Shown one piece after another: positions 7,763 through 63,269 of a stretch of 64,000 bases of DNA; the first letter of the stretch is position 1, and every line of letters begins with the position of its first letter. This DNA is from Centroscyllium fabricii. Lineage: Eukaryota. The stretch lies in NCBI GenBank assembly GCA_051313645.2, contig JBNRSN020000005.1, positions 179,924,001 to 179,988,000 on the forward strand, given 5' to 3'. The position numbers and the translations under genes are program-made. A model generated the notes under the pieces. It ran no database searches. It saw only the letters and a list, made by a program, of their open reading frames with translations, and had not been told where the DNA came from.

Positions 7763-10700
7763 TGTAGTGCATGCAGGCCTGAAGAACCACGCGGGAGCCA
7801 GAAGGACAGAGAACACTTGTTTTATTCATTGCGTGGCCAGGTAGAAAGAGAGAGAACCACCTGGAGCAGGCTTATTTAAAGCGCCCGCGGTTGGTGATCT
7901 CATCACGCCGGAAGTCGCGGTGACATCATCACGTCACCCGATGGGCGGGGCTGTGCCCCGCAGTACTCCCGAGGCGGATTCGATGTCTTTGGTGGGCGTG
8001 TCGCCACACAGCTCCCCCCCAGAATCTGTACGGGAGAATAAAATAAAATAAAAAAGAGTCTTATGAGAGGCGTTGTAGTGGCCGGATGATGCGGCCGGCA
8101 CGTGTCGTGCGCTACTCCTTGTTCTGCGGTGGAGTGTGGGCGGGTGTTGGTGCGGGAGGGCGTCCGCGTTTCGGTGGTTGCGTGGGGACTGTTGGCTCAC
8201 CCGCTATTACGTGTGCCGGTTTCAACCGGTCTATTGAAACGGTTTCAGTCCTGTTGCCCATTTGCAGTTGGAAAGCTTTAGCTCCCGCCCGAAGCACTCT
8301 GTAGGGTCCATCATACGGTGGCTGTAGTGGCGATCGATGTGCGTCGTGCCGGACAAACACATACTTGGCGTTTTTAATGCCGTCCGGTACACGTGCTGCT
8401 GGCTCTCCGTGCCGGGCCACCGGTAGCGGCTTGAACGCTCGTGCTGGGTTGGTAAAGTCTTTTAGGTACTGGTCAGCTGACCAGGGAGCGTTTGGCTCTG
8501 CGAGGAACTCGCCTGGCACTGTTAGTGTTTGGCCGTAGACGAGTTCCGCTGCTGAGGCGTGCAGGTCTTCTTTGGCCGCTGAGCGTAGGCCGAGCATTAC
8601 CCAGGGCAGGCGGTCTGTCCACGTTGCGTCTTTAAGACTGGCCCGTAGGGATGCTTTCATGGAGCGGTGGAACCGTTCGCAAAGTCCGTTTGCTGTGGGT
8701 GGTAAGCGGTGGTTCGGTGTAGGGATACCCCAAGGTCGCGGGCGATGGTCGCCCATAGTGTCGACGTGAATTGGGGGCCTCTGTCCGACGTAATGTCGGT
8801 GGGTACGCCGAAACGAGCGACCCAGGTGGCAATGAAAGCTCTGGCCAGGTCCATGGTGCTGGTAGCAACGAGGGGGACCGCTTCTGGCCAGCGAGTGCTG
8901 CGGTCGACCATGGTCATGACGTGTGTGTGGCCCCGGGATGGCGGTAGAGGTCCGACCAAATCGATGTGGACGTGGTCGAAGCGTCTAGCTGGCATGGTGA
9001 ACGTTTCCAGCGGTGCCTTGATGTGTTTGTGCACCTTGGCGCGCTGGCAGGCAGTGCAGGCATTGGTCCAGGCGCGGACATCCTTGCGCAGGCCGCGCCA
9101 CACGAAACGTGCCGAAATTAGCTTGATGGACGCGCGGGTGCCGGGGTGGGACAGGCCATGGAGGGTCTCGAAAATGTGTCGCCTCCATGCGTGGGGGATG
9201 ACAGGTCTGGGCCGCGGTAAGGAGACGTCGCAGCAGACTACGGTGGCTGCGGGCCCGTGTGCTACGTTGGCCAAGCGCCGGCCGGGGAGGTTGGTAGCCG
9301 GATTGAGCAGGTCTGGGTCTGCCAGTTGGTCGGTTGCCAGTTTGGCGTAGTCGACCGCTGTTTGGACGGCGTTAATGGTGGGACGTGACAGGCAGTCAGC
9401 AACCACGTTGTCGCGGCCGGAGATGTGCTGTATGTCGGTGGTAAATTCCGACACGGCTGCGAGCTGGTGCTGCTGCCTGGCCGACCAGGGTTCGGCGATC
9501 TTAGCCATCGCGAACAGGAGTGGCTTGTGATCGACGAAGGCTGTAAAATGGCGGCCCTCCAAGAGGAAGCAAAAGTGGCGTACTGAGAGGTAGAGAGCGA
9601 GCAGCTCCCTGTCGAAGGCGCTGTACTTAACCTCTGGGGGCCGAAGTTGCCGGCTGAAAAAGGCCAGGGGTTGCCAGGAGTTGCCGGTCCACTGCTCAAA
9701 GACAGCTCCGACAGCGTGGTCAGAGGCGTCGGTGGTGAGGGCCACTCTGGCGTTGGGCCTAGGGTGGGCTAGGAGCGTGGCGTTGGCCAGGGCGGTTTTG
9801 GTTGCGGTGAAGGCAGTGATGGCTTCGGCCGTCCACTCGACCGCAGTTTTGTTGGACTGCCCGCGTGTGGCCTGGTATAGGGGTGCCATGAGAGCGGCTG
9901 CTCCTGGGATGAAGCGGTTATAGAAATTAAACATGCCTAGGAATTCCTGCAGCCCCTTGATGGAGTGCGGGCAGGGGAATTACTGGACCGCCTGCACCTT
10001 GGAGGGCAGGGGTATGGCCCCAGTTTGGGAAATGCGGTGGCCGAGGAAGTCGATGGTCTCGAGGCCAAATTGGCATTTAGAGGGGCTTAATATGAGACCG
10101 TGTTCGGTCAGGCGTTGGAACAGGGCCCTGAGATGCAGGAGGTGTTCCTGGGGGGAGGTGCTGGCCACGAGGATGTCGTCTAGGTAGACGAAAATGAACT
10201 GCAGGTCCCGTAGGACTGAGTCCATGAGGCGTTGGAAGGCCTGTGCAGCGTTTTTAAGTCCGAAGGGCATTCGGAGAAATTCGAACAGGCCGAAGGGGGT
10301 GATGACGGCTGTCTTAGGGACATCCGCCGGGTGCACCGGGACCTGGTGGTAGCCCCGTACCAGGTCGATCTTAGAGAAGATCGTGCAGCCCGCTAGCCTG
10401 GTGGAGAAATCTTGGATGTGGGGGACAGGGTACCTGTCTGGGGTGGTGACGTTGTTGAGGCGGCGGTAGTCTCCGCAGGGGCGCCAACCACCGCCCGGCT
10501 TGGGGGCGATGTGGAGGGGAGAGGCCCAGGGGCTGTTGGAGCGGCGGATTATGCCGAGTTGTTCCATGGTGCGGAACTCGGTACGCGCGAACTCCAGTTT
10601 GGCCGGGTCCAGTCTGCGGGCGTGGGCATGGACGGGAGGGCCGGTGGTGGTGATGAAATGCTCCACCCCGTGCTTGGCCGTGCGGGCTGTGAAGGTGGGG

Positions 10701-12223
10701 TTGGTGGGGGCTGGGAACTCCGCGAGGAGCGTGCCGTACGTGTCGGAGTTCCGGGTTCGGCAGTGTGCCGCTGCGTGGGCCAGGTGTGCCGGCCCTGTGG
10801 AGCATGGGATGGTCGACATGTTGTGAATGTCGACCAGGCGGCGCCGGGTCATGTCGACCAGGAGGCCGTGGGCGCAGAGGAAATCTGCCCCGAGGAGGGG
10901 TAGTTTAACCTGGGCAGTGATAAAGTCCCAGTGGTACGTGTGGCCGGCGAGCTTGATGGTGAGCTTGCGGGTGCCGTACGTCTTTATTTCGGAGCCGTTT
11001 GCGGCCTCGAGTGGCGGGCCCCGGGTGCCTTTTTTGGCTTCTGCAGGGGAGGCTGGCACAATGCTGTGCTGTGCGCCTGTGTCGCAGAGGAACCGTAGGC
11101 CTGTGCCGCTGTCTGTGGCGTAGAGCAGTGCTCCAGTGTGGCCTACTGACATGGTGGGGCTTGAGCCGGGCTGGGGTTTGAAGGTGCAGGGCTGGACGCA
11201 GTGGTGCGCTTTGGAATCAAACCGCGTGTGGTAATAGCACCAGCCGGTGCCCGATGTGCGCGGCCTTTTGCGGGGTCGCGTTGGCCTGGGTTCAGGCCTG
11301 GAGTCGGACCTGGGGTGTGCGTAGGGGGGCTCGGCTGCCGTGGCAGAGATCCCGCACGTAGCGGAGCGGGAGCGCTCGGCCATCATGAGCTTGTCGGCCT
11401 CCTCAGCTAGCTCGTCCCCGCTCCGGTGGCAGAGGGCCGTCAGGGCCGGTCTGATGGAGGGGGGCAGTTTGAGGAGGAACATGGTGCGCTTGAGGGAGGC
11501 TGGATCTGCGTTCAGCGCTTCCATTTGGGCCCAAAGGTCCGATGGGTCTGCGTCCCCGAGTTCGGGGAGGTTCATGAGCTGGCAGTCGCGCTCAAATTGG
11601 GAGGGGGTGAATTTTTTAAACAGCGCGGCCTTAAGGAATTCGTACCTGCCTGCTGCTGGTGCACGCTGTAACGTCGGCCACATCCGATCGACCGTGGACT
11701 GCGGTAGGGCCGAGAAGACCAGGTCGTAGCGATCATCCCCCTGGACGCCATGGATGCGGCAGCTGGTTTCGATACACAGGAACCATGCCGCTGGGCGTAG
11801 CTCCCAGATCTCCGGTAGAGTTAGTCTGTGCCCGGGGTTCTGGCCAAGTCTTTGAGTTCGCGAAGCTTGGTTTCCTGAAGGCATGTTTGGTGGAAGTGCT
11901 CTGAGGCAGCTTGGCCCTCAGTCCTGCAGCAACTGCTTCTTTTCTCTTGGAAGACGTTCCAAGTTCGATGTCACCACTGTAGTGCATGCAGGCGTGAAGA
12001 ACCACGCGGGAGCCAGAAGGACAGAGAACACTTGTTTTATTCATTGCGTGGCCAGGTAGAAAGAGAGTGAACCACCTGGAGCAGGCTTATTTAAAGTGCC
12101 CGCGGTTGGTGATCTCATCACGCCGGAAGTCGCGGTGACGTCATCACGTCACCCGATGGGTGGGGCTGTGCCCCGCAGTACTTCCGAGGCGGATTCGATG
12201 TCTTTGGTGGGCGTGTCGCCACA
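7763..12223 (-). mobile_element. Full-length Gypsy LTR retrotransposon, CsRn1-like
   Basis: 246-bp TG...CA LTRs at 7763-8008 and 11978-12223 (about 6 mismatches); GATA TSD at 7759-7762 and 12224-12227; PPT GGGGGGGAG next to the 3' LTR; TGG-type PBS next to the 5' LTR. Confidence 0.95.
8112..11884 (-). pseudogene. gag-pol polyprotein (Gag CHCC knuckle, protease, RT, RNase H, integrase) with one stop and one frameshift
   Basis: [18 protein letters not shown]; LCDTGA; YLDD; TDASD; integrase H-H-C-C and DLVGP...SDRG...E; GPY motif. In-frame TAA at 9980-9982; frameshift near 8690-8700. Confidence 0.92.
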
Positions 12224-14343
12224 GATACGTATATTAGAATGCCGTTTATTGACTACAGCTCAGCATTCAACACCATCGTCCCCAGCAAGTTGTCTACCAA
12301 ACTCCTCACCCTTGGCCTGAACACCTCCCTCTGCAACTGGATCCTGGACTTCCTAACCAACAGACCACAGTCTGTGAAGTTAGGCAACCTCACCTCCCCC
12401 CCGCCCTTACCCTGAACACGGGAGCCCCACAAGGCTGTGTGCTGAGCCCCCTCCTCTACTCCCCATTCACCCATGACTGTGCGGCTGTCCACGGCTCCAA
12501 CACGATCATCAAGTTTGCGGACGACACCACGGTGGTTGGCCAGATCACCAACAACGATGAGTCAGCCTACAGGGATGAGATTCAGCGCCTTGTGGGATGG
12601 TGTGCCGATAACAACCTGGCACTGAACACCAAGAAAACCAAGGAGATCATAGTGGACTTCCGGAAGACTAAAAGCAGAAGACACACCCCCATCTTCATCC
12701 AAGGGGCTGAGGTGGAAAGGGCGTCCAGCTTCAAGTTCCTCGGGGTCCACATCTCGGAAAACCTCGCCTGGTCACTAAACACCTCCTCTCTGGTTAAGAA
12801 GGCCCAACAGCGTCTGTACTTCCTAAGGAAGCTGAAAAAAGCCAAGCTGTCATCCGGCATCCTCACCAACTTCTACCGCTGCACAATCGAAAGCATACTG
12901 ACAAGCTGCATCCAAGTCTGGTATGGGAACTGCACCATCTCGGACCGGAAGACCCTGCAGCGGGTAGTCAAAACTGCCCAACGAATCACCGGCACCCAGC
13001 TACCGTCAATTGATTGCACCTACCTCAAACGTTGCCTACGGAGGTCTCAGAACATTATTAAAGACCCCACACACCCCAGCCACAGTCTGTTCGCCCCCCT
13101 GCCCTCCGGGAGATGCTACTGATCAATCCGCAACCCCACGACTAGATTCAAGAACAGCTTCTTCCCCAGGGCAGTCAGCCTCCTGAACTCTAACAAAAAA
13201 CTCCATTATCTGCACACCTGAAATGTACTTTACTGTATGCAATTGTATGTAACTTATTTGCACTACTCTCGGGAGCAGCGAGTCTTCGTTTTGTTGTATT
13301 GTACTTGTACTCTGCAATGACAATAAAACTTGAATTGAATTGAATTGAAATTGAATTGATAACCCCGCCTCACAGGGACATGAAAATCACCCCCATAATC
13401 TGGAAACTTACTTTCAAATATGTGTTTGAGTATTGTAGTACAGGTACTATTGTGACCCTCCAAAGGTTGTAAATGGCTGAATCTTTGTATTCTTGATATT
13501 TCAGTGGGCATGTTCAGGATCTCCAGTTAACCTTGTTGTTTAATTTTCCTACTGCTCTCTTCTTGTTAAGCTATCTTGTATCTTATGATTATGTTCCTTG
13601 TTCTGTTCTATAAATTATCTAAATAATTTTTTTTTTTTAAACAGGTTAATCATTTGGACAGTAACTCAATAAGGCAACTCAGTTTATTGACCAAGTTAAT
13701 TATACAGGTCTTTCTCATGAATGGAGTCTACTGTCTCAGAATTATGACTAGAAACATGAGTAATTTTATCAGCTGGACAACAGTATGCATTTTAACAACC
13801 GTGATGCTTGAAAAAAAGGTACAGAAAATCAAGCAATTGGCATTGAATTGCAAAAAGAGTGCCATGCTGTTAAAATAATGCTGCTGTATTTTATTTTACT
13901 TTGGAAAGAAACTTTTCCTGGAGTAAAAATGAGAATGTTCAAATTGCCTGAAATTTCCATGAAAAATGGTTTTAAAAAAGGACAGAAATTGTAACAGTGT
14001 AGGTTTTACTGATGGTAGATCACTTGTAGCTCAGCAACACGAAGACTTATATAATTGTTCACAAATTGGAGCTGATCTTATCGTAGTCTTGCTGTATTTA
14101 AAATTTACATATAGATTGCCCACTTAACAATTTTCTGATCATGGCTATAATGTCATAAGGCAAGTTTGCTCCGAAGACATGAAATTGCACAATAATGGAA
14201 ACTTGCAACAAAATGTTCCACCTATTTATCATTAGAAGTTAAATATAAAATGTTTCTAGATGATTAAAGGATGAACATAGAGATCAGTATGCCATTTGTT
14301 TGCACTGTTGACTGCACAAATATACAGATTCCTCAGGTTGCAC

Positions 14344-14746
14344 GGACGGCACGGTGGCATAGTGGTTAGCACTGCTGTCTCACAGCACTGGAGACCCGGG
14401 TTCAAATCCAGCCTCGGGTACTATCTGTGTGGAGTTTACACATTCTCCCCGTGTCTGCGTGGGTTTCCTCCGGGTGCTCCGGTTTCCTCCCACAGTCCAA
14501 AGATGTGCGGGTTAGGTTGATTGGCCATGTTAAATTGACCCTTAGTGTTAGGGCGATTGAATGTGTGGGGTTACGGGGATAGTGTGGGATGTGTGTCGGT
14601 GCAGGCTTGATAGGGATTGAGGGATATGGGGAGAAGGCAGGGGCGGGGTGCTGGGTTTGGATGATCAGCCATGATCTCATTGAATGGCGGAGCAGGCTCG
14701 AAGGGCCGAATGGTCTACTCCTGCTCCTATCTTCTATGTTTCTATG
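14344..14746 (+). mobile_element. tRNA-derived SINE (HE1-like) with CR1-derived 3' tail
   Basis: A box TGGCATAGTGG, B box GGTTCAAATCC; tail shared with CR1 3' ends in the window; (TTCTATG)n end. Confidence 0.85.
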
Positions 14747-14907
14747 TTGTGAGGGGATGATAACTAGAATCTCTAGTTCATTTTGCCAAACAGTAATTAG
14801 AAGCCAAATTCTCGTGGGTATGTATAGACAGAAAAACTGCTCCATCTACAAAGTCCTAAAGCTGACTGGCACAGTGCCACCTCCCTGGTACAACTCCTAT
14901 CACCCAC

Positions 14908-29848: not shown

Positions 29849-30275
29849 AAGGACTTTCCCTCTGACGCCTCCCCACATCATTGCAACTGATAAGTGTTGT
29901 AAGCATATCAAATCTGTATCCCTTACTGTTAAATGTCATGAGCCTGAAATTCTGATCCAGTTGCTCTGCCGGTGAAAGTGCAACAGAGTAGATTCTAAAT
30001 CCATCAATGCAGGGAGACCCAGACACCATCCCAAATTATCATCTGCATACTCAGGGCAGGTGGCCTGCATTTGTAAATGTGCATCATTGGTACCAGCCAT
30101 GACAACAGCCCGGAAAACTGGTGTGGTGCTATGTGGATCGATGACCTAGGAAGGGCCGAGACCAGACAGGCCAAAATTTTAAAGTTTGCTCCTAAGGATG
30201 CGCTGGCCCATCAAGTTAAAGTACTCAGTCGTCTCCAGGATCAATTACCTTTAACCTGTAAAAAGACCTGGACCT

Positions 30276-30587
30276 GGGCGGCACGGTGGCATAGTGGTTA
30301 GCACTGTTGCCTCACAGCACTGGAGACCCGGGTTCAAATCCAGTCTCGGGTACTATCTGTGTGGAGTTTGCACATTCTTCCCGTGTCTGCGTGGGTTTCC
30401 TCCGGGTGCTCCAGTTTCCTCCCACAGTCCAAAGATGTGCAGGTTAGGTTGATTGGCCAGGATAAATTGACCCTTAGTGTTAGGGGGATTAAATATGTGG
30501 GGTTATGGGGATAGGGTAGGATATGTGTCGGTGCAGGCGTGATGGGCCGAAATGGTCTCTATCCGCACTGTAGGGATTCTATGATTC
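30276..30587 (+). mobile_element. HE1-like SINE with a shorter tail
   Basis: Same head and body as 14344. Confidence 0.85.
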
Positions 30588-32209: not shown

Positions 32210-35200
32210 CATAGAAACATAGAAGGTGGGAGCAGCAGTGGGTTATTCGGCCCCTTGAGCCTGCTCCGCCATTCAATGCGATCATGGCTGATCAGCCAAA
32301 TTCAATACCCTGTCCTTGCTTTCTCCCCATATCCCTTGATCCCTTTAGCCTTAAGAAATATATCCAACTCCTTCTTGAATATATTTAATGAATTGGCCTC
32401 TACTGCCTTCTGTGGTAGAGAATTCCACAGGTTCACCACTCTCTGGGTGAAGAAATTCCTCCGCATCTCTGTCCTAAATGGTTTACCCCTTATCATTAGA
32501 CTGTGTCCCCTGGTTCTGGACTCTTTCACCATCGGGAACATTCTTCCTGCATCTAGTCTGTCTAGTCCTGTTAGAATTTTATAAGTTTCAATGAGATCCC
32601 CTCTCATTCTTCTAAACTCCAGCGAGTACAAACCCAATCGACCCAATTTCTCATCATACGTCATTCCTGCCATCCCAGGTATCAGCCTGGTGAATCTTCG
32701 CTGTACTCCTTCCAAGGCGACCATAACTGCACACAATTTTCAAGATGTGGTCTCACCAAGGCCCTGTACAACTGCAGAAAGACATCCTTGTTCCTGTACG
32801 CAAACCATCTTGCTACGAAGGCCAACATACCATTTGCCTTCTTAACCACCTGCTGCACCTGCATGCTTACCTTCAGTGACTGGTGCACAAGAACGCCCAG
32901 GTCTCGTTGCACTTCCCCTTCTCCCAATCTATTGCTATTCAGGTAATAATCTGCCGCCTTATTTTTGACACCAAAGTGTATAACCTCGCATTTATCCACG
33001 TTATATTGCATCTGCCATGCTTCTGCCCAATCACCCAACCTGTCCAAATCATACTGAAGTTTCTTGGCATTCTCCTCAGCACTCACGCTCACCCAGCTTT
33101 GTGCCATCTGCAAACGAGGAGATATTACATCTCGTTCCCTCGTCCAGATCATTAATATATATTGTGAATAGCTGGGGTCCAAGGACCGATTCTTGCGGTA
33201 CCCCACTAGTCACTGCCTGTCACTCGGAAAAAGAGCCGTTTATTCCAACTCTTTGCTTTCTGTCTGCCAACCGGTTCTCTATCCAAGTCAATAACTTGCC
33301 CCCAATCCCATGTGCCTTAACTTTACACGCTAATCTCTTATGCGGGACCTTATCGAAAGCCTTTTGAAAGTCCAAGTACACCACATTCACTGGTTCTCCC
33401 TTATCTATTTTACCAGTTACATCCTCAAACAATTCCTGTAGCTAAGTCGAGCACGATTTACCTTTTGTAAATCCATGTTGACTTTGTCTGAACCGGTCAC
33501 TATTTTCCAAGTACTCTGCTATTACATCTTTTATAATGGACTCTAGCATTTTCCCCACTACTGATGTCAGGCTTACCAGTCTGTAATAACCCGTTTTCTC
33601 TCTACCACCTTTTTTGAACATTAGCTACCCTCCAATCCATGGGTACTGTTCCACAGTCTATCGAATTTTGGAAGATGACCAGCAAAGCATCCACTATTTC
33701 TAGGGCCACTTCCTTAAGTACCCTCGGATGTAGATTATCAGGCCCTGGGGATTTATCGGCCTTCAATTCCATCAATTTCTCTAACACCATTTCCCTACAG
33801 ATACTACTTTCTATCAGTTCCTCCCTTTCATTAGACCCTGTGGTAATATTGAACAGACTTCCGGGGGAAGGCTAAGGGGTGAACTCTGTACATGTCACTT
33901 CCTGTTTTCTATTAGTATAAATACTAGAACTGCTCAGTATGGGGGAACGCTTCACCTGGAAGCATGGTAAAACCCGTCTTTGTACATAGTGATAATGTAG
34001 TGGATTAAAGCTTAAGTTATTGATATATCAGACTCCATTATTACATCAATTTAATCCACTAAAAACTTCACGCTCAAAATCCTTAAAACTTTTGGACGGC
34101 ACGGAACTGAGGATCCAGGGACCAACCCATCATGGAAAGCCTCCTCAAACCTACTCACCTGGATCTGGACCCAAATGCACCAGCAGCTGCCAAGGTATGG
34201 AAGCATTGGTTCCATACTTTTGAGAATTTTCTTGAAGAATGTTGTGAGGATGCCTCTACCAAACTACGATTACTTGTGAATTATGTGTCCCCCAACGTAT
34301 ATGAATATGTTGATAAATGGGATAACTATAATGAGGTAATCCAAGCACTGAAAGAACTATATACTAAGGCCCCAAACGAGGGCTATGCTAGACATTTACT
34401 GTCCATGGCCCAACAAAGGCCAGGGCAATCGATTCAGGAGTTCCTTCAAGAACTTCGCAGGCTCAGTGTAGATTGTAATTTTAAGGCAGCCTCGGCTGAG
34501 GTGTACCACGAAGAAATGATTCGAGATACTTTCATCTGCGGGATCGCCTCTCCATTTATACGCCAGCGTCTGCTAGAGAGAAACACGCTTGAGCTATCAA
34601 AGGCTTTTGACCTGGCTTGTGCTCTGGACTTGGCAAAAGAAAAATTCAGACCTCTATCAGCTGCCCAGATCGCGAACTGCTGCTGCAACTGCAATCAGAC
34701 CATTCAAGGGGCCTCAGGTGGACCCTATCATGGAAGAATCTAGTCTTGATGAGTTCAGTGATGAGGAAGAGGATGACCCCACTTTAGCAGCCTCTTGGCA
34801 ATCTAGGAAGAAATGCTTCTTTTGTGGAGACTCTTTCCACCCTAGGAAATTCTGCCTTGCTCGCAATGCAATTTGCAGTCATTGCAGTAAAAAAGGACAC
34901 TTTGCAAAAGTTTGCCAATCAAGAGCCTCTACGAGGGCCTATCAAGCTAAGGCCTACCGAGCTGCCCCAATTAGGGCCTATCAAGATGCTCCAGCTAGGA
35001 CCTATCGAGCTCCTTCCCGAAGAAACACACCTGGAATTACAGCCTCCCTCTGTGCAACCACACCAATTACAGCTGCCTGCCCTCAAAATTTATTTCATGC
35101 AGCTACAAAAGTCTCGATTAATGGGCATACCTTTGATGCCATAATTGACTCGGGAAGTACTGATAGTTTCATTAGAAAACAGATTGTTGAGAATTTGAAA

Positions 35201-38200
35201 CTACATGTCTTCCCATCGGACCAGGCAATTGCAATGGCTCAGTCATCACTTAATACCAGAATCTCCGGCTTTTGTATTATTGACATGACACTTAATGGCC
35301 GCATGTATCCCTCCACTCGGCTCTCAGTGCTCAAGGACTTATGTAGTGATCTTATCCTAGGGCTAGATTTTCAAAAACAACATAAAAAAACTCATCATTG
35401 AGTTCGGCGGATCCAAACCTGGACTTACTATTTCTAATATACTGTCTAAATCACCATTTTGTGCACTGTCAGCAGCCTCACTTGATGAACCCTCATTATT
35501 CGCCAGTATTCCTCCTCAATGCAAACCAATAATAACCAAATCTCGACGCTTCAGTCAGGAAGATCAGTCTTTCATTGAGACAGAAATCTCTCGTCTTTTA
35601 GCAGAGGACATCATCAAACCATGTTCATCGCCCTGGCGGGCTCAAATCGTCATTGTTAAGAACCCTCTAAAACCTCACAAATAACGACTATGCATTGATT
35701 ACTCTCAAACCGTCAATCAATATACTGACCTGGACGCCTACCCATTGCCACACATTGATGACATGGTTAATAAACTGGCTGAATACAAAGTGTTCTCAAC
35801 CTATGATTTAAAGAGTGCCTATCATCAGGTACCCCTACGGGTCTCAGATAAGAAGTACACAGCCTTTGAGGCTAATGGACGGCTGTATCAATTTCGTCGC
35901 CTCCCATTCGGGGTCACTAATGGAGTGGCTGTCTTCCAATGGGCAATGGATGGCCTCGTTGAGCAGGAAAACTTAAGGGATACTTTTCCCTAACTTGATA
36001 GCATTACTGTTGCAGGCCACGACCAGCAGGAACATGATGCCAACCTCCAAAGATTTCGGGATGCTCTCCATCACCGTAACTTAACTTTAAATTAATTCAA
36101 ATCTGTGGAGTCGCAATCGACCATCAACATTCTTGGCTACTGTGTCGGCAATGGTATCATTAAACCAGACCCGGAAAGACTTCGCCTGCTCCAGGAGCTC
36201 CCTCCACCTAACAATCCGACTTCTTTACGTCGGGCCCTCGGTCTGTTTGCATACTACGCTAAATGGATTCCGAATTTTTCAGATAAAATTCAGCCCTTGC
36301 TGAATGCTAGAACATTTCCATTGGGAACAGTGGCTGTTGCAGCCTTTAACCTTCTCAAGAAACAGTTGGAGAAAGCGACTCTTCACTCCATCAATGAGGA
36401 CCTCCCTTTCGTAGTCGAAAGTGATGCCTCGGAGGTGGCGATCTCAGCTACTCTAAATCAAGAAGGCCGTCCTGTAGCATTCATGTCCAGGACCTTACAA
36501 GGTGCCGAGATACATTATTCTCCAGTTGAGAAGGAAGCCACAGCCATCATAGAGGCAGTACGGAAGTGGAACCATTTCCCAGCTCGCCGGCACTTTACAT
36601 TAATCACGGACCAGCGATCAGTCGCCTTCATGCTCGATAATCGAAAGCGAACTAAAATTAAGAACAATAAAATACAGCTTTGGAGGATGGAATTGGCCTC
36701 TTTTGGTTTCATCATTCACTATCGACCTGGCAAAGAGAATGTGGCCCCGGATACCCTCACACGAGCATTCTGCTCTGCTATGTCATCTTCTACTCTCATA
36801 GACATCCATGATGGATTGTGTCATCCTGGCGTGACTCGCATGTTACATTTCATGCGATCACAGAATCTCCCATTTTCTACTGGAGATATAAAGAAAATGT
36901 GCTCCGAATGCCGAACTTGTGCAGAATTGAAACCTCAGTTCTTCCGCCCCCAGATGGTGCGCTCATACACGCAACCCAACTGATGCAACGACTTAGCATC
37001 GACTTCAAGGGCCCATTGCCCTCTTCAACACGGAACACATATCTGCTCAGAATGATCGATGAATATTCACTATTTCCGTTTGCCTTCCCCTTCTCCAATA
37101 TGCTGGCATCCACTGTAATCAACTGCCTTGAGCAAGTATTTTCTCTTTGTGGCATGGCAGCATACATTCACTCAGATCGGGGTCCATCCTTTATGTCAAG
37201 CGAACTGAAGGACTACCTCTCAGAATGGGGAATTGCGACAAGCAAAACGACGCCATACCATCCCATCGGGAATGGATAGGTAGAGAGATATAACGGAATC
37301 ATCTGGAATTCCATACGGCTTGCTTTAAAATCTCAGAGCCTACCAATCCAGCAATGGGAAGCAGTGCTTCCGGATGCATTACACTCTATACGGTCCCTTC
37401 TGTCTACAGCCACAAATACTACACCTCATGAACGGTTCTTTGGATTCCAGCGTCGCTCATCTTATGGGGCATCTCTTCCATCATGGCTAACTACTCCGGG
37501 ACCCATACTGCTCCGAAGATACGTTCGGACATCTAAAAATGACCCTCTCGTAGATGAGGTCGAACTAACTGATGCCAACCCTACCTATGCCTACATACGA
37601 TATCCCAACAGTCGAGAGTCTACCGTATCATTGCGGGACCTGGCACCCTGCCCACCAGGACCTAGAGGGACGCCAAGGGATAATATCCTACCAGGGGCCT
37701 CCAGGGACCCACCGGGTACCACTCTCCAGGACCCGGATCTGACACCAACTGGCTTTGTGCCGGTCAAATCGCACACTCAAGGTTACGACCCGCCAAGTAC
37801 CTCTTTCCAGGACACTGACCAGACACCAACCGACTCTGAGCCCGTGGGGGCTCGTACGCGGAGGCATGATCCTCCCGGTGCCTCACACCAAAGTGCCAAT
37901 TGGCCGCAGACCAGCTCTGTGCCTTCCCCTGACCAGGGACAAACCAGCTCTGCACCTATTGGAGCTCGTACGCGGAGCCATGATCTCCCCGGCCCTTCAC
38001 AGGGTAATCCAGGCCACGCAGGTTCTGACCCGTGGCCAACAGCAGGTAAACGGCCCAGAGACCCAGACATTGTCCATAGGGATGGACCATCAACCCAGCA
38101 ACGAGAACTCAAATGGGTGCGTCTCCTCCTTGTTCGGCTACTCCGGAATAAAAAGAAGATTCCCGCCTTTTAATTTTTCAGGAGGGAAGAATGTGGTAAT

Positions 38201-39065
38201 ATTGAACAGACTTCCGGGGGAAGGCTAAGGGGTGAACTCTGTACATGTCACTTCCTGTTTTGTATTAGTATAAATACTGGAACTGCTCAGTAGGGGGAAC
38301 GCTTCACCTGGAAGCATGGTAAAACCCGTCTTTGTACATAGTGATAATGTAGTGGATTAAAGCTTTGCTTTAAATTATTGATGTATCAGACTCCATTATT
38401 ACATCAGACCCCATGTTCCCCGACATCTCTGGAAGGTTGTTTGTGTCCTCCTTTGTAATTGGTCTGCCATTTCTTTGTTCCCATTATAAATTCCTCTGAT
38501 TCTGATTGCAAGGGACCTACGCTTGACTTCACCAATCTTTTTCTCTTCACATATCTACAGAAGCTTTTACAGTCAGTTTTTATGTTCCCTGAAAGCTTAC
38601 TCTCAACTTACTCTCATACTCTATTTTCCCCTTCTTAATTAATCCCTGTGTCCTCCTTTGTTGAATACTAAACTGCTCCCAAACCTCAGGTTTACTGCTT
38701 TTTCTGGCCAATTTATATGTCCTCTCCTTGGATCTTATGCTATCTCTAATTTCTCCTGTTAGCCACGGTTGAGTCACCTTTTTTGTTTTATTTTTATGCC
38801 AAACTGGGATGAACAAATTCTGTAGTTCATCCATGCGATCTTTGAATGTTTGTCATTGCCTATCCACCGTCAACCCTTTGAGTGACATTCCCCAATCAAT
38901 CCTACCCAACTCGTGCCTCATACCACTGTAGTTTCCTTTATTTGAATTCTGGACCTTAGTCTCAGTCAACTCCTTCACTCTCCATCTTAATGAAGAATTT
39001 GATCATATTATGATCGCTCTGACCCAAGGGGCCTCGCACAACAAGATTGCTATTTAATCCTCTCT
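32210..39065 (-). mobile_element. CR1 LINE ORF2 (32210-33833 + 38412-39065), interrupted by a Gypsy element
   Basis: DKSPGPDNLHPRVLKE, YLDFQKAFDKVPH, WQMQYNVDKC, TRGHSL; sequence continues across the GACCC TSD. Confidence 0.88.
33839..38406 (+). mobile_element. Full-length decayed Gypsy LTR retrotransposon without a tRNA PBS
   Basis: TG...CA LTRs at 33839-34048 and 38192-38406; GACCC TSD at 33834-33838 and 38407-38411; PPT AGGAGGGAAGAA; Gag with two CCHC knuckles, DSGS protease, RT, RNase H (ESDAS), integrase (DFKGP, SDRG); several stops and frameshifts. Confidence 0.95.
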
Positions 39066-43153: not shown

Positions 43154-44045
43154 GGACGCAAAATTCGTGAGTGCACGATTTGGGGCACTAAAACGGGCGC
43201 AGCGCTAAAATTAGTGCCGGAGCACCCGATATTCACTTCTGTGCCGGCCTTGCTGATTGCGGCGCTAATTCTAGCGTTGCACGACTGCAAACGCCCAATA
43301 TCGTGGCGCTAATTGCCGATCGCGGGCGCAGCGCTCCTTCATCAACTCCTTGCTTTCCCATGAACTCTGGATCCGGACAGGTCTTAAAGGGGGTACCCCT
43401 CCCTCATCTCCCCGATCTCTGCCAATGCCCCTCATCATCTCCCCGATCTCGCCCAACTCCCTTCAGCATCTGCCCGATCTCGGGCCGCCCGACCCCCCTC
43501 AGCAACTGGCCGATCTCGGGCCGCCCGACCTCCCCGCAGCAACTGGCCGATCTCGGGCTGACCCCCCCCTCCCGCAGCAACTGGCCGATCTCGGGCTGAC
43601 CCCCCTCCCGCAGCAACTGGCCGATCTCGGGCTGACCCCCCCCTCCCGCAGCAACTGCCGGATCTCGAGCTGACCCCCGTCCCGCAGCAACTGGCCGATC
43701 TCGAGCTGACCCCCTGCCCGCAGCAACTGGCCGATCTCGGGCCGAAGAGGCTACCAAGGAAAGGGAGGGTCGCCCTTTTAGCAGCGCTGCAGTGGCCACG
43801 CAGACCCTCAGCAGCACTTGTCAAAGCTGGCGCTGGCAGCGCTGCGCCAGGGGGACTGGCACAAAGGGGAATATCGGGCGCAGTCCGGCGGGCGGGCGTT
43901 GAACCCTGATATGCACGACGATTGCCAATCGCAAATTAGCGCGCGCTAACAGTTAGCGCCGGCGCTAGTCGGGTGGCGAATTTAGCACCCGGCGCTAAAA
44001 CCTGTAGCGCCCATTTTTCGGCGCTAAGGCGGCAATTTCGTGCCC
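43154..44045. mobile_element. Tourist/Harbinger-type MITE
   Basis: TAA TSD at 43151-43153 and 44046-44048; imperfect TIR GGACGCAAAATT / AATTTCGTGCCC; CpG-rich. Confidence 0.8.
43470..43742. repeat. About 35-38-bp minisatellite, about 7 copies
   Basis: CCCGCAGCAACTGGCCGATCTCGGGCTGACCCCC(C)n units. Confidence 0.9.
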
Positions 44046-44090: not shown

Positions 44091-45273
44091 GGCCCCAATA
44101 TTTACAAGGAGGCTGGATAGGCCGAAAAACCTGATAAGGCTGGGAACATGGATATCTTGCCAAACTTAATGGCAGGGCCTCATTATCATTTTTTATTCCG
44201 TTTCCTGTCTGGCAGCAGGCTAAATTAACAGCCTGGCTGGCGGCCAGGAGGGAGGGAAAACCAGAGGCAGGAGGCTGCAGCTTTTGACCCTTGGGAGGGA
44301 GGAAGGTCAACGATTGTGGCAGGGTGGAGAGAGAGGCCATCAGAGAAGAGGGAAGAGAGAGGAGATCTCAGCAAAGGGAAGAAAGGCGCGTTTGTGGCGG
44401 GGTTGAGAGTCCATCGTGGTAGGGAGAAAGAGAGAGTCCATCGTGGCAGGGAGAAAGAGAGAGTCCACTAAGGCAGGGAGAAGAGAGGAGTCATTGTGGC
44501 AAGGGGAAGAGAGAGGCCATCACTGCAGGGAGAAGAGAGAGGCCATCATAGCGGGGAGAGGAGAGAGACCATCACGGCAGGGGGAGGAGAGAGACCATCA
44601 CGGCGGGGGGAGGAGAGAGGTCATCACGGCGGGGGGAGGAGAGAGGCCATCACGGCGGGGGGGTGAGAGAGGCCATCACGGCGGGGGGGGGGGTGGAGGG
44701 GGTGAGAGAGGTCATCACGGCAGGGGGAGGAGAGAGCTCATCACGGCAGGGGGAGGAGAGAGGCCATCAGGGCGGGGGGAGGAGAGAGGCCATCACGGCG
44801 AGGGGAGGAGAGAGGTCATTGAAGCTGGTGGGAGGTAGAGGCCATCAGTTTTGGAGGGAGAGAGGTTGCGATTGGCAAGTGGTAGGCTGAAGACTTCCTT
44901 GAGGGGCCAGGGGGGAGCACTCCTGCTCATCCTGACTCACAGGGAATGCTGGTAAAGGCACTTACCTTTTGGAGCCAGCAGTTCCCACCTCCCTTTAACT
45001 GCTAGTTTTCCCGACTCCTGGGAAGCATGCGCAGCAGCAGTGAATTTTAAATCAGACTCCCAATTGTACTTGGGAACCCGATTTAAATATGTCAATAAAG
45101 TGTCCTCCTTCTCCATGGCGGGACAGACACATGCCACGATATCCGCTGCAGTAAAAGGGTGGTGGGTGCGTGTATGCTGTGTTGGGGGCACATTCGCCAT
45201 ATTTAAGCATTTTACACCCCCAACACCCTCCTGGCCCTCTCCCACCCATTGTGGGATGGTTAATAATGAGGCC
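44091..45273. mobile_element. MITE with 15-bp TIRs and an internal purine-rich minisatellite (about 26-27-bp unit, 44500-44830)
   Basis: GGCCCCAATATTTAC / GTTAATAATGAGGCC; flanks ACA and ATA; unit GGAGAGAGGCCATCACGGCGGGG. Confidence 0.75.
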
Positions 45274-48429: not shown

Positions 48430-51400
48430 TTCATTGATGGGATGTGGGCGTCGCTGGCTGGCTAGGCCTACATTTAGTGCCCATCCCTAATTGCCCTTGA
48501 GAAGATGGTGGTGAGCCACCTTCTTGAACCGCTGCAGTCCATATGGTGTAGGTACACCCACAATGTTGTTAGGAAGGGAGTTTCAGGATTTTGGCCCAGC
48601 GACAGTGAAGGAGCAGCGATACAGGTCCAAGTCAGGATGGTGTGTGGCTTGGAGAGGAACTTGTAGGTGGTGCTGTTCCCATGCGTCTGCTGCCCTTGTC
48701 CTTCTAAGTGGTAGAGGTCGTGGGTTTGGAAGGTGCTGTTGAAGGAGCTTTGGCGAGTTGCTGCAGTGCATCTTGTAGATGGTACACACTGCAGCCACAG
48801 TGCGCCGGTGGTGGAGGGAGTTAATGTTGAAGGTGGTGGATGGAGTGCCAATCAAGCGGCCTGCTTTATCCTGAATGGTGTCGAGCTTCTTGAGTGTTGT
48901 TGGAGCTGCACTCATCCAGGCAAGTGGAGAGTATTCCATCACACTCCTGACTTGTGCCTTGTAGATGGTGGAAAGGCTTTGGGGAGTCAGGAGGTGAGAC
49001 ACTCGCCGCAGAATTCCCAGCCTCTGGCCTGCTCTTGTAGCCACAGTATTTATATGGCTGGTCCAGTTCAGTTTCCGATCAATGGTAACCCCCAGGATAT
49101 TGATAGTGGGGGATTCAGCGATGATAATGCCATTGAATGTCAAGGGGAGATGGTTAGAGTCTCGCTTGTTGGAGATGGTCATTGCCTGGCACTTATGTGG
49201 TGCGAATGTTACTTGCCACTTGTCAGCCCAAGTCTGAATGTTGTTCAGGTCTTGCTGCATATGGACACGGACTGCGTCAGTATCTGACGAGTCTCGAATG
49301 GTGCTGAACAGTGTGCAATCATCAGCGAACATCCCCACTTCTGACCTTATGATGGAGGGAAGGTCATTGATGAAACAGCTGAAGATGGTTGGGCCTAGGA
49401 CACTGCCCTGAGGAACTCCTGCAGTGATGTCCTGTGGTTGAGATGAATGACCTCCAACAACCACAGCCAACTTCCTTTGTGCTAGGTATGATTCCAACCA
49501 ATGGAGAGTTTTTCCCTTGATTCCCATTGACTTCAGCTCCTTGATGCCACACTCGATCAAATGCTGCCTTGATGTCAAGGGCAGTCACTCTCACCTCACC
49601 TCTTGAGTTCAGCTCTTTTGTCCATGTTTGGACCAAGGCTGTGATGAGGTCAGGAGCTGAGTGGCCCTGGCGGAACCCAAACTGGGCGTCAGTTAGCAGG
49701 TTATTGCTGAGTAAGTGCCGCTTGATAGCACTGTCGACGACACCTTCCATCACTTTGCTGATGATTGAGAGTAGACTGATGGGACGGTAATTGGCCGGGT
49801 CGGATTTGTCCTGCTTTTTGTAGACAGGACATACTTGGGCAATTTTCCACATTGCTGGGTAGATGCCAGTGTTGTAGCTGTACTGGAACAGCTTGGCTAG
49901 GGGCACAGCTAGTTCTGGATCACAAGTCTTCAGTACTATTACCGGAATGTTGTCAGGGCCCATAGCCTTTGCAGTATCCAGTGTCTTCAGCCGTTTCTTG
50001 ACATCACGTGGAGTGAATTGAATGGGCTGAAGACTGGCATCTGTGATGCTGGGGACCTCAGGAGGAGGCCGAGATGGATCATCCACTCGGCATTTCTGGC
50101 TGAAGATAGTTGCAAATGCTTCAGCCTTGTCTTTTGCACTCACGTGCTAGGCTCCACCATCATTGAGGATGGGGATATTTTTGGAGCCTCCTCCTCCTGT
50201 TAACTGTTTAATAGTCCACCACCACTCACGACTGGATGTGGCAGGACTGCAGAGCTTTGATTTGATCCGATGGTTGTGAGATCGCTTAGCTCTGTCTATC
50301 GCATGTTGCTTCTGTTGTTTGGCATGCAACTAGTCCTGTGTTGTAGCCTCGACAGGTTGACACCTCATTTTCCGGTATGCCTGGTGCTGTTCCCGGCATG
50401 CTCTCCTGCACTCTTCGTTAAACCAGGGTTGATCTCCCGGCTTGATGGTAATGGTAGAGTGAGGGATATGCCGGGCCATGAGGTCACAGATTGTGGGTGA
50501 ATCCAATTCTGCTGCTGCTGATGGCCCACAGCGCCTCACGGACGGGCGACACGGTGGCACAGTGGTTAGCACTGTTGTCTCACAGCACTGGAGACCCGGG
50601 TTCAAATCCAGCCTCGGGTACTATCTGTGTGGAGTTTGCACATTCTCCCCATGTCTGCGTGGGTTTCCTCCGGGTGCTCCGGTTTCCTCCCACAGTCCAA
50701 AAATGTGCGGGTTAGGTTGATTGGCCATGATAAATTGACCCTTAGTGTTAGGGGGATTAAATATGTGGGGTTATGGGGATGGGGTGGGATATGTGTCGAT
50801 GCAGGCTCGATACGGATCGAGCGATATGGGGAGAGGGCGGGGTACTGGGTTTGGATGATCAGCCATGATCTCATTGAATGGCGGAGCAGGCTCGAAGGGC
50901 CGAATGGCCTACTCCTGCTCCTAGTTTCTATGTTTCTATGGATGCCCAGTTTTGAGTTGCCAGATCTGTTCGAAATCTGTCCCATTTAGCACGGTGGTAG
51001 TGCCACACAACATGGTGGAAGGTATCCTCAACATGAAGACGGGACTTCGTCTCCACAAGGACTGTGCGGTGGTCACTTCCACCAATGCTGTCATGGACAG
51101 ATGCATCTGCAACAGGTAGATTGGTGAGGATGAGATCAAGTAGGTTTTTCCCTCTTGTTGGTTCCCTCACCACCTGTCGCAGACCCAGTCTGGCAGCTAT
51201 GTCCTTTAGGACTCGGCGGTCAGTTGTGGTGCTATCGAGCCACTCTTGGTGATGGACATTGAAGTCCCCCACCCAGAGGACATTTTGTGCCCTTGCTACT
51301 CTCAGTGCTTCTTCCAATTGATGTTCAACATGGAGGAGTACTGATTCATCAGCTGAGGGAAGGCGGTAGGTGGTAATTACTAGGAGGTTTCCTTGCCCAT

Positions 51401-51536: not shown

Positions 51537-51769
51537 TGATGCTGGAGTTATGTGAATAAACAATAGGCTTTTATTAGCTAAAGAACAGGAGCATACATCT
51601 GCTGATTGACTGGTCCAAGACTGAGTGGGAGTAGGGAGACGAACAGCCTTATACCTGGGTCCAGGGGAGGAGCCACAGGCGGAGTCAGCAGGGGCATGCC
51701 CAGGCAGGTTACATGCAGCCAGGTATAGTGAACTATAATACAATATATACAATACAGTGGCTTACCACA
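51537..51769 (-). mobile_element. Solo LTR related to the 60255-63187 family
   Basis: TG...CA ends; shares GGCTTTTATTAGCTAAA, GGAGGAG.CACAGGCGG, GCATGCCCAGG and GTGG.TTACCACA; imperfect TSD. Confidence 0.7.
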
Positions 51770-59202: not shown

Positions 59203-59481
59203 TGTTGTAAACCACTCTTTATGTATATATCTGTATATTATTGTAACCACCCTTAAACCATGTTGTATTGTAGTTCTTTGTATGTGATCACCTGGACATG
59301 CCCATGCTGGCCCCGCCTGTGACTCCTCCCTCCCAGGACCAGGTACATAAGCGGCCGTCTCCCTCTCCCCGGCCATTCCTGGGGACGGTCGACTAGCTGG
59401 TGCATGTCCACCTTTAGCTAATAAAAGCCTATAGTTTTCACCTCTTAATAACTCGTCTCCGAGGTCGTTAATTCGGTAACA
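59203..59481 (+). mobile_element. Solo LTR of the PBS-less Gypsy family
   Basis: TG...CA ends; perfect TATTA TSD at 59198-59202 and 59482-59486; TTTAGCTAATAAAAGCC poly(A) region. Confidence 0.88.
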
Positions 59482-60254: not shown

Positions 60255-63187
60255 TGTTGCCGAATCAATGACCTCGGAGACGAGATGTAACGAGGTGAAA
60301 CAAAAGGCTTTTATTAGCGAAAAGGCAGGGCATGCACCAGCTAGTCGACCGCTCCCAGAATGAATGGGGGAAGGGAGACAGTCGCTTATGTACCTGGTCC
60401 TGGGAAGGAGGAGTCACAGGCGGGGCTAGCATGGGCATGCCCAGGTAAGCAACATACAGAGAACTATGTACATGCTCACAGGCCGTTGGTTACACACATA
60501 TATATTCAAAGTGGTTTACCACATTCACCCCTTGTTTAAAACAAATCCGGCGGGGCGAATGCGACGCAGTTCTTAGAGGTCGAGCCTGTCGGGCGCCCTG
60601 GTCTGCCTAGTCGATCAGCACACCGCTGGTGGTGGAGTCGGCGGGCGCACCGTTGGGCCTCTGCCGACAGGGGAAAGGTGGTTGATTTAAGTAGTGGGCG
60701 GGCTTTGTCCGCATAGTTGGGGACCCACTGGGCATAGTAAGAAAAGAACCCCAGGCACCTTTTCAGGGCCTTGAGGGAGTGGGGGAGGGGGAGCTCCAGG
60801 AGGGGGCGCATGCGGTCCGGGTCGGGACCGATGACCCCATTCTCCACAACACTGCCGAGGATGGCGAGGCTGGTTGTCCTGAACACACATTTTTCTGTGT
60901 TATAGGTCAGGTTTAACATTTTGGCGGTGTGGAGAAATCTCTGGAGGTTGGCGTCATGGTCCTGCTGGTCGTGGCCGCAGATGGTCACATTATCGAGATA
61001 CGGAAAGGTGGCCCGCAGTCCGTACTGATCAACCATTCGGTCCATCTCCCTTTGGAAGACCGAGGCCCCGTTGGTGACGCCAAATGGAACCCTGAGGAAG
61101 TGATAGAGGCGGCCATCAGCCTCGAAGGCAGTATAGTGACGGTCCTCTGAGCGGATGGGGAGCTGGTGGTACGCAGACTTCAGATCGATGGTCGAGAAGA
61201 CCCGAAACTGGGCGATCTGGTTCACCATGTCCGCTATGCGGGGGAGGGGATACGCATCTAGCTGCATAAACCGGTTGACGGTCTGACTGTAGTCCACAAC
61301 CATCCGGTGTTTGGCTCCGGTCTTCACCACCACTACCTGCGCCCTCCAGGGGCTATTACTGGCCTCGATAACCCCCTCCTTCAGGAGCCGCTTCACCTCA
61401 GACTTGATGAAGTCTCTGTCCCCGGTACTGTAGCGCCTACTTTTGGTGGCGACGGGCTTGCAGTCCGGGGTGAGGTTGGCAAAGAGCGAGGGGGGGGCGA
61501 CCTTAAGGGTCGAGAGGCCGCAGGTAGCGCGCTGTGGGTACTGCGGGGAGCGCTGGTTGCTGACCGTGAGCGGGGGAAGGGGCCCACCGTACGCCATGGT
61601 AACGCTCTGGAGGTGGCACTGAAAATCGAGGCCCAGCAGTAAGGGAGCGCAGAGCTGCGGCAGCACGAATACTTTAAAATTACTGAAGTGTACGCCCCGC
61701 ACTGTCAGGGTCACAACGCAGTGACCGCAGACGTCCGCAGATTCGGACTTAGACGCCATCGGTATTTTTTGTCTAGCCGGCATGACTTTAAGGGAGAAGC
61801 ACTTTACCGTATCTGGATGGATGAAGCTCGCCGTGCTCCCGCTGTCAAAAAGGCACTCTGTACTCCGCCCGTTCACCTGCACCGTCATCATAGATCTGCT
61901 GAGTGGCTGACTCTTGTTCTGGTCGAGTGTGATGGGGGCCAGTATCGGGTCGGTCGAGTCAGTTGAGAGGTCTGGGGCCTGTTCCCAAGATGGCTGCCGC
62001 CACGCAGCGTGCTGTGATGGAGATGGCTGTGTCCAAGATGGCGTCTGCTCCCACGCGGCGGGCTGTGGTGGAGATGGCTGTGTCCAAGATGGCTGCCCCC
62101 ACGGCCCACACGCGGCGCTGCCCGGTTTGGAGGGCGCTATTGCCGCTGCTCTGCAGACTTTAGCGAAATGTCCTTTCTTACCGCATTTCGAGCAGGCCGC
62201 CTCTCTCGCCGGGCAGTTTCGCCTGGGATGTTGGGCCTGGCCGCAGAAGTAGCATTTCGGCCCTCTCGAGTGCGTAGCCACAGTCATCTCTTCCGCCGGT
62301 CGCGGCGCGGCCGGCTGTGCCCAAGATGGCGGCGCCGGCGATGGGGCCACGTGGTTGCCCGAGTAAGACGACAAGTTAAGGGACACCAAGTCCAGCGCGT
62401 TCCCCAGGTCAGCTGTCGCCTGCAGGTCCATACCGTTTTGCTCCAAGAGTCTTTGGCGGATATAATCGGACCTGAGGCCAGTCACATAAGCGTCCCTGAT
62501 GAGACTGTCCGCGTGCACCTGGGCTGTCTGTAACTTACAGTTGCAGGCCCGGCAGAGGACTCTCAGCGCTCGTAGGAACTCCACGCTCGATTCCCCGGGA
62601 TGCTGCTTTCTGGTGGCCAGGAGGTGTCTGGCGTGGACGAGGTTCGGTGTCCGGTTGTACTCGGCTTTTAGAATCCGGATCGCATCTAGGTAGGACGATG
62701 CATCCGCGATCATCGAGTAGCTTTGGGGGCCCACCCGGGCGTTGAGAAGGCGCCGCTTGTCCTCCTCTGTCCGGACGACCGCCGCGTTTGCTTTGAGGAA
62801 CGCGTCGAAACAGTCGAACCAGTGCGTGAAGGTATTGGAGGCGCCTGGTGTTTGGGGATCCAGTTCGAACGTTGCTGGTTTTAGCATGGACTCCATAGTT
62901 AAATTTAGCTAATAAAATTGTTACCGAATCAACGACCTCGGAGACGAGATGTAACGAGGTGAAACAAAAGGCTTTTATTAGCTAAAAGGTAGGGCATGCA
63001 CCAGCTAGTCGATCGCTCCCAGAATGAATGGGGGAAGGGAGACAGTCGCTTATGTACCTGTTCCTGGGAAGGAGGAGTCACAGGCGGGGCTAGCATGGGC
63101 ATGCCCAGGTAAGCAACATACAGAGAACTATGTACATTATCACAGGCCGTTGGTTACACACATATATATACAAAGTGGTTTACCACA
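60255..63187 (-). mobile_element. Internally deleted Gypsy LTR retrotransposon without a tRNA PBS
   Basis: 269-bp LTRs at 60255-60523 and 62919-63187 (about 9 mismatches); TSD ATACC/CTACC; PPT AAGGGGTGAA. Confidence 0.93.
60536..62896 (-). CDS. Gag-protease-RT ORF (786 aa) lacking RNase H and integrase
   Basis: CYFCGQAQHPRRNC and CSKCGKKGHFAKVC knuckles, FDSGS protease, DLKSAYHQ, PFGVTN, YLDN; homology to the 33839 element ends after TTFPLSAEAQ. Confidence 0.88.
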   Translation of the reverse strand: MESMLKPATFELDPQTPGASNTFTHWFDCFDAFLKANAAVVRTEEDKRRLLNARVGPQSYSMIADASSYLDAIRILKAEYNRTPNLVHARHLLATRKQHPGESSVEFLRALRVLCRACNCKLQTAQVHADSLIRDAYVTGLRSDYIRQRLLEQNGMDLQATADLGNALDLVSLNLSSYSGNHVAPSPAPPSWAQPAAPRPAEEMTVATHSRGPKCYFCGQAQHPRRNCPAREAACSKCGKKGHFAKVCRAAAIAPSKPGSAACGPWGQPSWTQPSPPQPAAWEQTPSWTQPSPSQHAAWRQPSWEQAPDLSTDSTDPILAPITLDQNKSQPLSRSMMTVQVNGRSTECLFDSGSTASFIHPDTVKCFSLKVMPARQKIPMASKSESADVCGHCVVTLTVRGVHFSNFKVFVLPQLCAPLLLGLDFQCHLQSVTMAYGGPLPPLTVSNQRSPQYPQRATCGLSTLKVAPPSLFANLTPDCKPVATKSRRYSTGDRDFIKSEVKRLLKEGVIEASNSPWRAQVVVVKTGAKHRMVVDYSQTVNRFMQLDAYPLPRIADMVNQIAQFRVFSTIDLKSAYHQLPIRSEDRHYTAFEADGRLYHFLRVPFGVTNGASVFQREMDRMVDQYGLRATFPYLDNVTICGHDQQDHDANLQRFLHTAKMLNLTYNTEKCVFRTTSLAILGSVVENGVIGPDPDRMRPLLELPLPHSLKALKRCLGFFSYYAQWVPNYADKARPLLKSTTFPLSAEAQRCARRLHHQRCADRLGRPGRPTGSTSKNCVAFAPPDLF

Positions 63188-63269
63188 CTACCATACCCCA
63201 CAAAAGTGCTTAATTGGTTGTAAAACGCTTTGGGACGTCCTGAGGTTGAGAAAGGCGCGATATAAATGC

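Follow-up and report, generated by a model that had tools for sequence, protein, structure and literature searches.

Ty3/Gypsy elements of the clade described here most probably self-prime reverse transcription from their own RNA, in a manner similar to Tf1. One base beyond where the 5' LTR ends, in the position of the primer-binding site, they carry a short arm that pairs with the R region of the same LTR, and this pairing is, to judge from sequence comparison, a clade-wide conserved hairpin. Given self-priming, the chances are about even that the same predicted fold also masks the 5' poly(A) signal. An LTR element requires a primer whose 3' end is paired just outside U5. Self-priming is suggested because no tRNA-type site is present and the only complement of the arm is the element's own R region, ending at the required base.

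The hairpin of element A and related copies in the window

Element A is a 2.9-kb Ty3/Gypsy element on the minus strand of the window, the whole 64-kb stretch of DNA that was analyzed (Table 1). It displays TG...CA LTRs, a target duplication (flanks GGTAG/GGTAT, 5 bp with one mismatch), a polypurine tract (PPT), and a Ty3-like reverse transcriptase (RT), all of them Ty3/Gypsy traits; the best solved-structure match of the RT is Ty3 RT (E 1.3e-36). The single frame, which ends at the PPT, codes for a Gag containing zinc knuckles, followed by protease and RT. RNase H and integrase have been deleted, and this copy is non-autonomous. The RT catalytic motif at window positions ~60996-60985 reads YLDN instead of YxDD. 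Among 184 homologous proteins, YxDN is present in 123 and YxDD in 33, and a literature search on the YLDN motif of RTs yielded nothing relevant.

Table 1. Positions of element A, element B, related LTR copies, and the control element in the window
Feature	Position	Strand	Remarks
5' LTR of element A	62919..63187	-	269 bp, TG...CA; 260/269 identical to 3' LTR
3' LTR of element A	60255..60523	-	target copy 60322-60309, 1 mismatch; no arm after it
LTR target of element A (AATAAA at 62979-62974)	62973..62986	-	predicted 3' end of self-primer
Predicted cut in element A	between 62973 and 62972	-	inferred
One-base spacer, A	62918	-	directly after 5' LTR end
14-nt arm, primer-binding-site position	62904..62917	-	exact complement of target
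TATA-like box of element A	63049..63056	-	motif
Initiator-like A, predicted transcription start	63025	-	31 nt past TATA-like box
gag-PR-RT reading frame of element A	60536..62896	-	internal deletion: RNase H and integrase missing
Polypurine tract of element A	60524..60537	-	adjoins 3' LTR
Left target-site duplication of element A	63188..63192	-	4/5 bases identical to 60254-60250
Element B, same clade	33839..38406	+	order PR-RT-RH-IN; frames broken
LTRs of element B	33839-34048 and 38192-38406	+	
Target of element B (ATTAAA)	33998-34009	+	
Spacer and arm of element B	34049 (spacer), 34050-34061 (arm)	+	
Solo LTR, sister subfamily	59203..59481	+	TATTA duplication; target present, arm absent
3'-truncated LTR, sister subfamily	51537..51769	-	target retained; LTR end and arm missing
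TGG-type Gypsy (control)	7763-12223	-	246-bp LTRs, DUF7041 Gag, ordinary TGG primer site

The original prediction held that an arm at 62917-62904 pairs with a target at 62986-62973 that includes AATAAA, and that the gag ATG follows 7 nt past the arm. Both coordinates and letters are correct, the two segments are exact reverse complements, and the ATG is located at 62896, as claimed. Such a match is not expected by chance: none of 20000 shuffled LTRs matched the arm over more than 12 nt, and the 14-mer with at most one mismatch occurs five times in the window versus 0.03 expected, all occurrences being in LTR copies or in the arm. In control comparisons, the host DNA behind the 3' LTR of element A matches only 5 nt, and the TGG-type Gypsy element of the window matches 6 nt. 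A TGG tRNA-type site is absent after the 5' LTR end of element A, and no tRNA genes were found in the 64-kb window. Other repeats in the window include two RT-matching frames with no LTRs noted (48583-50146, minus strand), probably a LINE fragment; minisatellites at 44319-44916 and 43428-43744 with periods of 26 bp and 36-38 bp; and a SINE-like dispersed repeat with a tRNA-like head at 14342-14748, 30274-30573, 50542-50939, and other positions.

Element B shares the arrangement of spacer, arm, and LTR target, and its Gag is 38% identical to that of element A. The stems of the two elements had been proposed as sequence-independent instances of one hairpin. They do have different bases at the same register, but the elements are homologous, as their Gag proteins demonstrate, and do not represent independent inventions. 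The arm had also been reported in the LTR copies at 51537 and 59203. In fact both carry only the LTR-side target, and the former is a 3'-truncated LTR (51537-51769) rather than a whole solo LTR. Because the arm is absent, the hairpin cannot form, and these copies add no evidence for it.

A separate observation concerns a strong deletion hot spot in family B, which coincides with a short inverted repeat at the target's 3' edge (window 34004-34021; L141-L170, L281-L320). It accounts for 17 of 19 indels of at least 3 nt in 39 5' LTRs and for 4 of 5 in 26 3' LTRs; among 25 LTR pairs, 11 are affected in the 5' LTR only, two in the 3' LTR only, and two in both (p=0.022). The hot spot was considered as a footprint of strand transfer and rejected, as 13 of the 15 affected pairs are discordant and the same deletion is common to only one.

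Conservation and covariation across the clade

A genome search for the element A family, in which 40 of 4469 first-look candidates were scored, returned 30 loci, with the window copy first and the set biased to close copies. The junction is present in all 30 copies examined, and the arm is exact in 27 of them. The shared junction rules out local rearrangement as its source. The original prediction was to be abandoned if related elements had a normal tRNA site or if the junction had arisen by rearrangement; both possibilities were checked and failed, and the hairpin stands. Directly behind the 5' LTR, members of the clade do not have the site beginning with TGG that tRNA-primed elements carry, L071, discussed below, being a doubtful case.

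For a broader set, own-genome loci obtained with divergent Gag queries were combined with 80 metagenome loci. The gag start with 90 nt upstream was available in 274 of 291 loci, of which 231 are non-identical, and a copy was taken as paired if Watson-Crick pairs filled at least 10 of the 11 positions counted from one base after a CA. This holds for 197 of the 231 copies (152/176 from the own genome, 45/55 from metagenomes). When clusters are judged by their first member, 34 of 43 pass, versus 0-3 of 43 in each of 20 shuffle rounds; some of the 43 clusters are splits of one family. The families are related, so that the counts are not independent. In 25 of 57 loci the LTR end was set independently by the 3' LTR, and it falls at the CA that precedes spacer and arm or, by chance matches, a few bases farther on.

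The paired copies comprise 25 fully complementary 11-bp stem types, one of them a register-shifted duplicate, leaving ~24 distinct versions. Changes on both sides are observed at stem positions 2 and 4-11, and the core positions 1-3 and 10-11 are nearly constant. Even sister subfamilies within this genome differ on both sides at positions 8-11. Stem versions with G-U pairs are single copies, the only multi-copy type being a deletion scar. The natural covariation claimed in the original prediction is strongly supported. A-to-I editing of the primer was considered and rejected, since own-genome copies have no excess of target-A/arm-C combinations (5 of 91 non-Watson-Crick cells). In one locus, L013, the arm is of the sister subfamily version (L189 type) and the 5' LTR target is of the family A version; this mixed stem may have resulted from a point mutation or a template switch.

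Among the eight failing clusters, L126 and L275 have 17-bp stems and a mutated CA, and L099 has 9 of 11 pairs. In L074, the arm pairs with its own 3' LTR copy, which accounts for an apparent TGG. Decay, overwriting, or deletion seems to have affected L140, L185/L200, and L218. L071 remains an exception and counts against self-priming. Two related metagenome loci, L075 and L136, have a common A-C mismatch at stem position 6, with neighboring pairs covarying.

The constant features were determined on 36 representatives, hand-picked with one per stem type. A scan that permits G-U pairs gives false alternative stems in several loci, and the tallies of poly(A) signals, loops, and spacers were taken from these representatives. 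The spacer is A in all 36, preceded by CA in 34, and RC directly follows the target in 35. The perfect run is 12-18 bp in 31 representatives, and the loop is 24-72 nt. AATAAA or ATTAAA lies in the core in 30; the other six keep the stem without a canonical hexamer, and they occupy at least three places on a short Gag tree. The hosts of these six may use other poly(A) signals. In these comparisons, the LTR end and the arm keep their one-base register more constantly than any other feature, and this is the geometry of a primer-binding site.

Among own-genome representatives, 12 of 17 have a TATA-like box 54-83 nt upstream of their 11-nt core; within 130 nt such a box is found in 12/17 own-genome and 2/19 metagenome representatives. 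Promoter motifs point to a predicted start that precedes the paired core by ~42 nt. The leader of element A folds at z -2.97 with pair probabilities of 0.67-1.0, whereas that of element B folds no better than shuffles (z -0.84). In element A, the predicted probability that AAUAAA is unpaired is at most 0.01 in the 5' context versus 0.39-0.79 in the 3' context. A helix starting at RC is enriched (4.2 vs 3.0 bp in shuffles; 34 representatives, not independent). The enrichment of an LTR-end helix over shuffles is not significant (p=0.10), and a third, downstream duplex of the pretzel type was not found (4.8 vs 4.8 bp in shuffles, p=0.70).

Self-priming and alternative explanations

According to the proposed mechanism, transcription would start near 63025, and the R-region target of the 5' LTR would fold onto the arm. 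A cut would then be made in the RNA where the target ends on its 3' side and the second short helix begins (AAA/RC), the likely enzyme being RNase H of the element, provided in trans. From the resulting 5' fragment (~53 nt, internal), synthesis of minus-strand DNA would be primed and would run through U5 and the remainder of R, and this DNA would jump to the 3' R. Masking of premature 5' polyadenylation is suggested because the poly(A) signal is usually the target itself and the arm occurs only behind the 5' LTR, so that AAUAAA would be closed there and more open at the 3' end.

A primer is copied into its binding site during plus-strand synthesis. Strict Watson-Crick covariation without fixed G-U pairs is expected if such copying takes place. 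The mismatch shared by L075 and L136 counts against it, because copying should erase a mismatch. Further points were counted against priming of the Tf1 type: the predicted start upstream of the core is unlike the first-11-nt primer of Tf1, neither a third pretzel duplex nor a significant LTR-end helix was found, the leader of element B folds no better than shuffles, and the hexamer in the targets is also predicted by a poly(A)-masking role. A start at the first A of the core, which would reproduce the exact Tf1 geometry, is disfavored by the stems longer than 11 bp in 31 of 36 representatives and by the position of the TATA boxes.

It is unlikely that the hairpin only hides the 5' LTR poly(A) signal, with priming by something else. 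Suppression of 5' polyadenylation is described as a necessity in retroviruses (PMC3694450), and a hiding role agrees with the 30 hexamer-containing targets, the closed AAUAAA in the 5' context, and the short loop. However, it does not account for the constant one-base register, for the lack of any further primer site and of fixed G-U pairs, or for the six stems without the hexamer (in L068, ATTAAA sits in the loop); moreover, R-U5 alone is already partly paired there by prediction (0.09-0.85). A variant of self-priming, in which priming falls to the 3' R copy or to short LTR transcripts in trans, and the RNA is shortened as far as the duplex instead of being cut in the 5' hairpin, shares most of its evidence with the preferred explanation. 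The target is found in both LTRs and in solo LTRs, and DNA sequence cannot tell the priming copy. This variant nevertheless seems improbable to us, given that the 5' hairpin is local and predicted to be dominant, with its loop bounded.

Gating of gag translation by the stem, another suggestion of the original prediction, is not supported and is very improbable. The ATG is indeed close to the arm here, and the distance is at most 10 nt in many families, but it varies from 1 to 70 nt across 33 representatives, the ATG lies outside the stem, and the spacer and the first two bases of AUG are predicted to be unpaired. Hardly credible is the binding of a host small RNA (an internal tRNA fragment or similar) to the arm, the LTR match being secondary. 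The near constancy of core positions 1-3 and 10-11 would agree with such binding, and half-tRNA priming is known in other groups (PMC6317226, PMC10886601). Yet the arm and its own LTR change together through ~24 versions, including those of sister subfamilies in one genome, and this covariation brings host small RNA binding close to refutation. Self-priming from the 5' hairpin thus remains the preferred explanation.

Relation to known elements and implications

The order of pol domains is PR-RT-RH-IN in element B and in all five full-length relatives, which have single frames of ~1200 aa; element A lacks RH and IN. In the Gmr1 clade, the integrase precedes RT, and the observed domain order rules out Gmr1 identity. 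No chromodomain was detected in the five full-length relatives (E 0.05) or in the last frame of element B. RT relatives number 1408 at E 0.001, the closest named ones being from sharks and rays (~80-84%), and Gag relatives were found in rays, Trichinella, cnidarians, a mollusc, Seison, and a prawn. Overall, relatives of the clade span sharks and rays, cnidarians, molluscs, nematodes, and arthropods. An Atlas search matched generic Gag clusters, and no relatives were found in viral contigs. By their published description, Mag and CsRN1 resemble the clade in short LTRs and a size of ~4.3 kb (PMC11117352).

The closest mechanistic parallel is provided by Tf1/Tf2 of S. pombe, Tj1, and the Tf1/sushi chromoviruses, which are described as Ty3/Gypsy elements without a tRNA site. 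In Tf1/sushi, as in our clade, the primer site adjoins the CA that ends the LTR and is complementary to LTR sequence of the element itself, with an 11-nt conserved core (PMC7175516, PMC4600332, PMC10085805, PMC5341516), and in Tf1, the cut that RNase H makes behind base 11 of the mRNA gives the primer (PMC7175516, PMC5341516). The definition of Tf1/sushi includes a chromodomain and the pretzel structure (PMC10085805). Unlike Tf1/sushi, the clade has neither a chromodomain in the five full-length relatives nor the third pretzel duplex, its primer is predicted to be internal rather than the first 11 nt, its target overlaps the poly(A) signal, and its RT motif is mostly YxDN. The clade works like Tf1/sushi, yet fails membership on the chromodomain and the pretzel structure.

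A hairpin internal to R also contributes to suppression of 5' polyadenylation in HIV-1. In HIV-1 and foamy virus, and by the present proposal also in the clade, two identical LTRs come to behave differently through an element found solely downstream of the 5' one; in these viruses it is U1 snRNP at the splice donor, whereas here it would be direct pairing with the primer site (PMC3694450). Self-priming has also been inferred from LTR complementarity for the plant elements Tcn1 (Gypsy) and TAR (Copia), which differ from the clade in lineage and hosts, and the part of that account available mentions no poly(A)-signal overlap for them (PMC6317226). The "conserved hairpin site" of fungal GalEa Copia elements likewise replaces a tRNA site beside the 5' LTR, but it is not complementary to the LTR and belongs to Copia, not Gypsy (PMC5445492).

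No prior description of the clade's hairpin was found in the literature searched, with subscription papers, GyDB, and Repbase notes lying outside it. We tentatively suggest, while regarding it as somewhat doubtful, that a widespread non-chromovirus animal Gypsy clade evolved self-priming separately from Tf1/sushi and used the poly(A) signal of the element for the end of the primer. A single helix would then serve two purposes, silencing the 5' poly(A) site and, when cut at AAA/RC, releasing a long capped primer; neither point would be in print. If true, a large clade of animal Gypsy elements would join the chromoviruses in tRNA-free priming, which would account for annotation tools finding no primer site in such elements. 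It would also provide a simple way for identical LTRs to avoid 5' polyadenylation without a splice donor.
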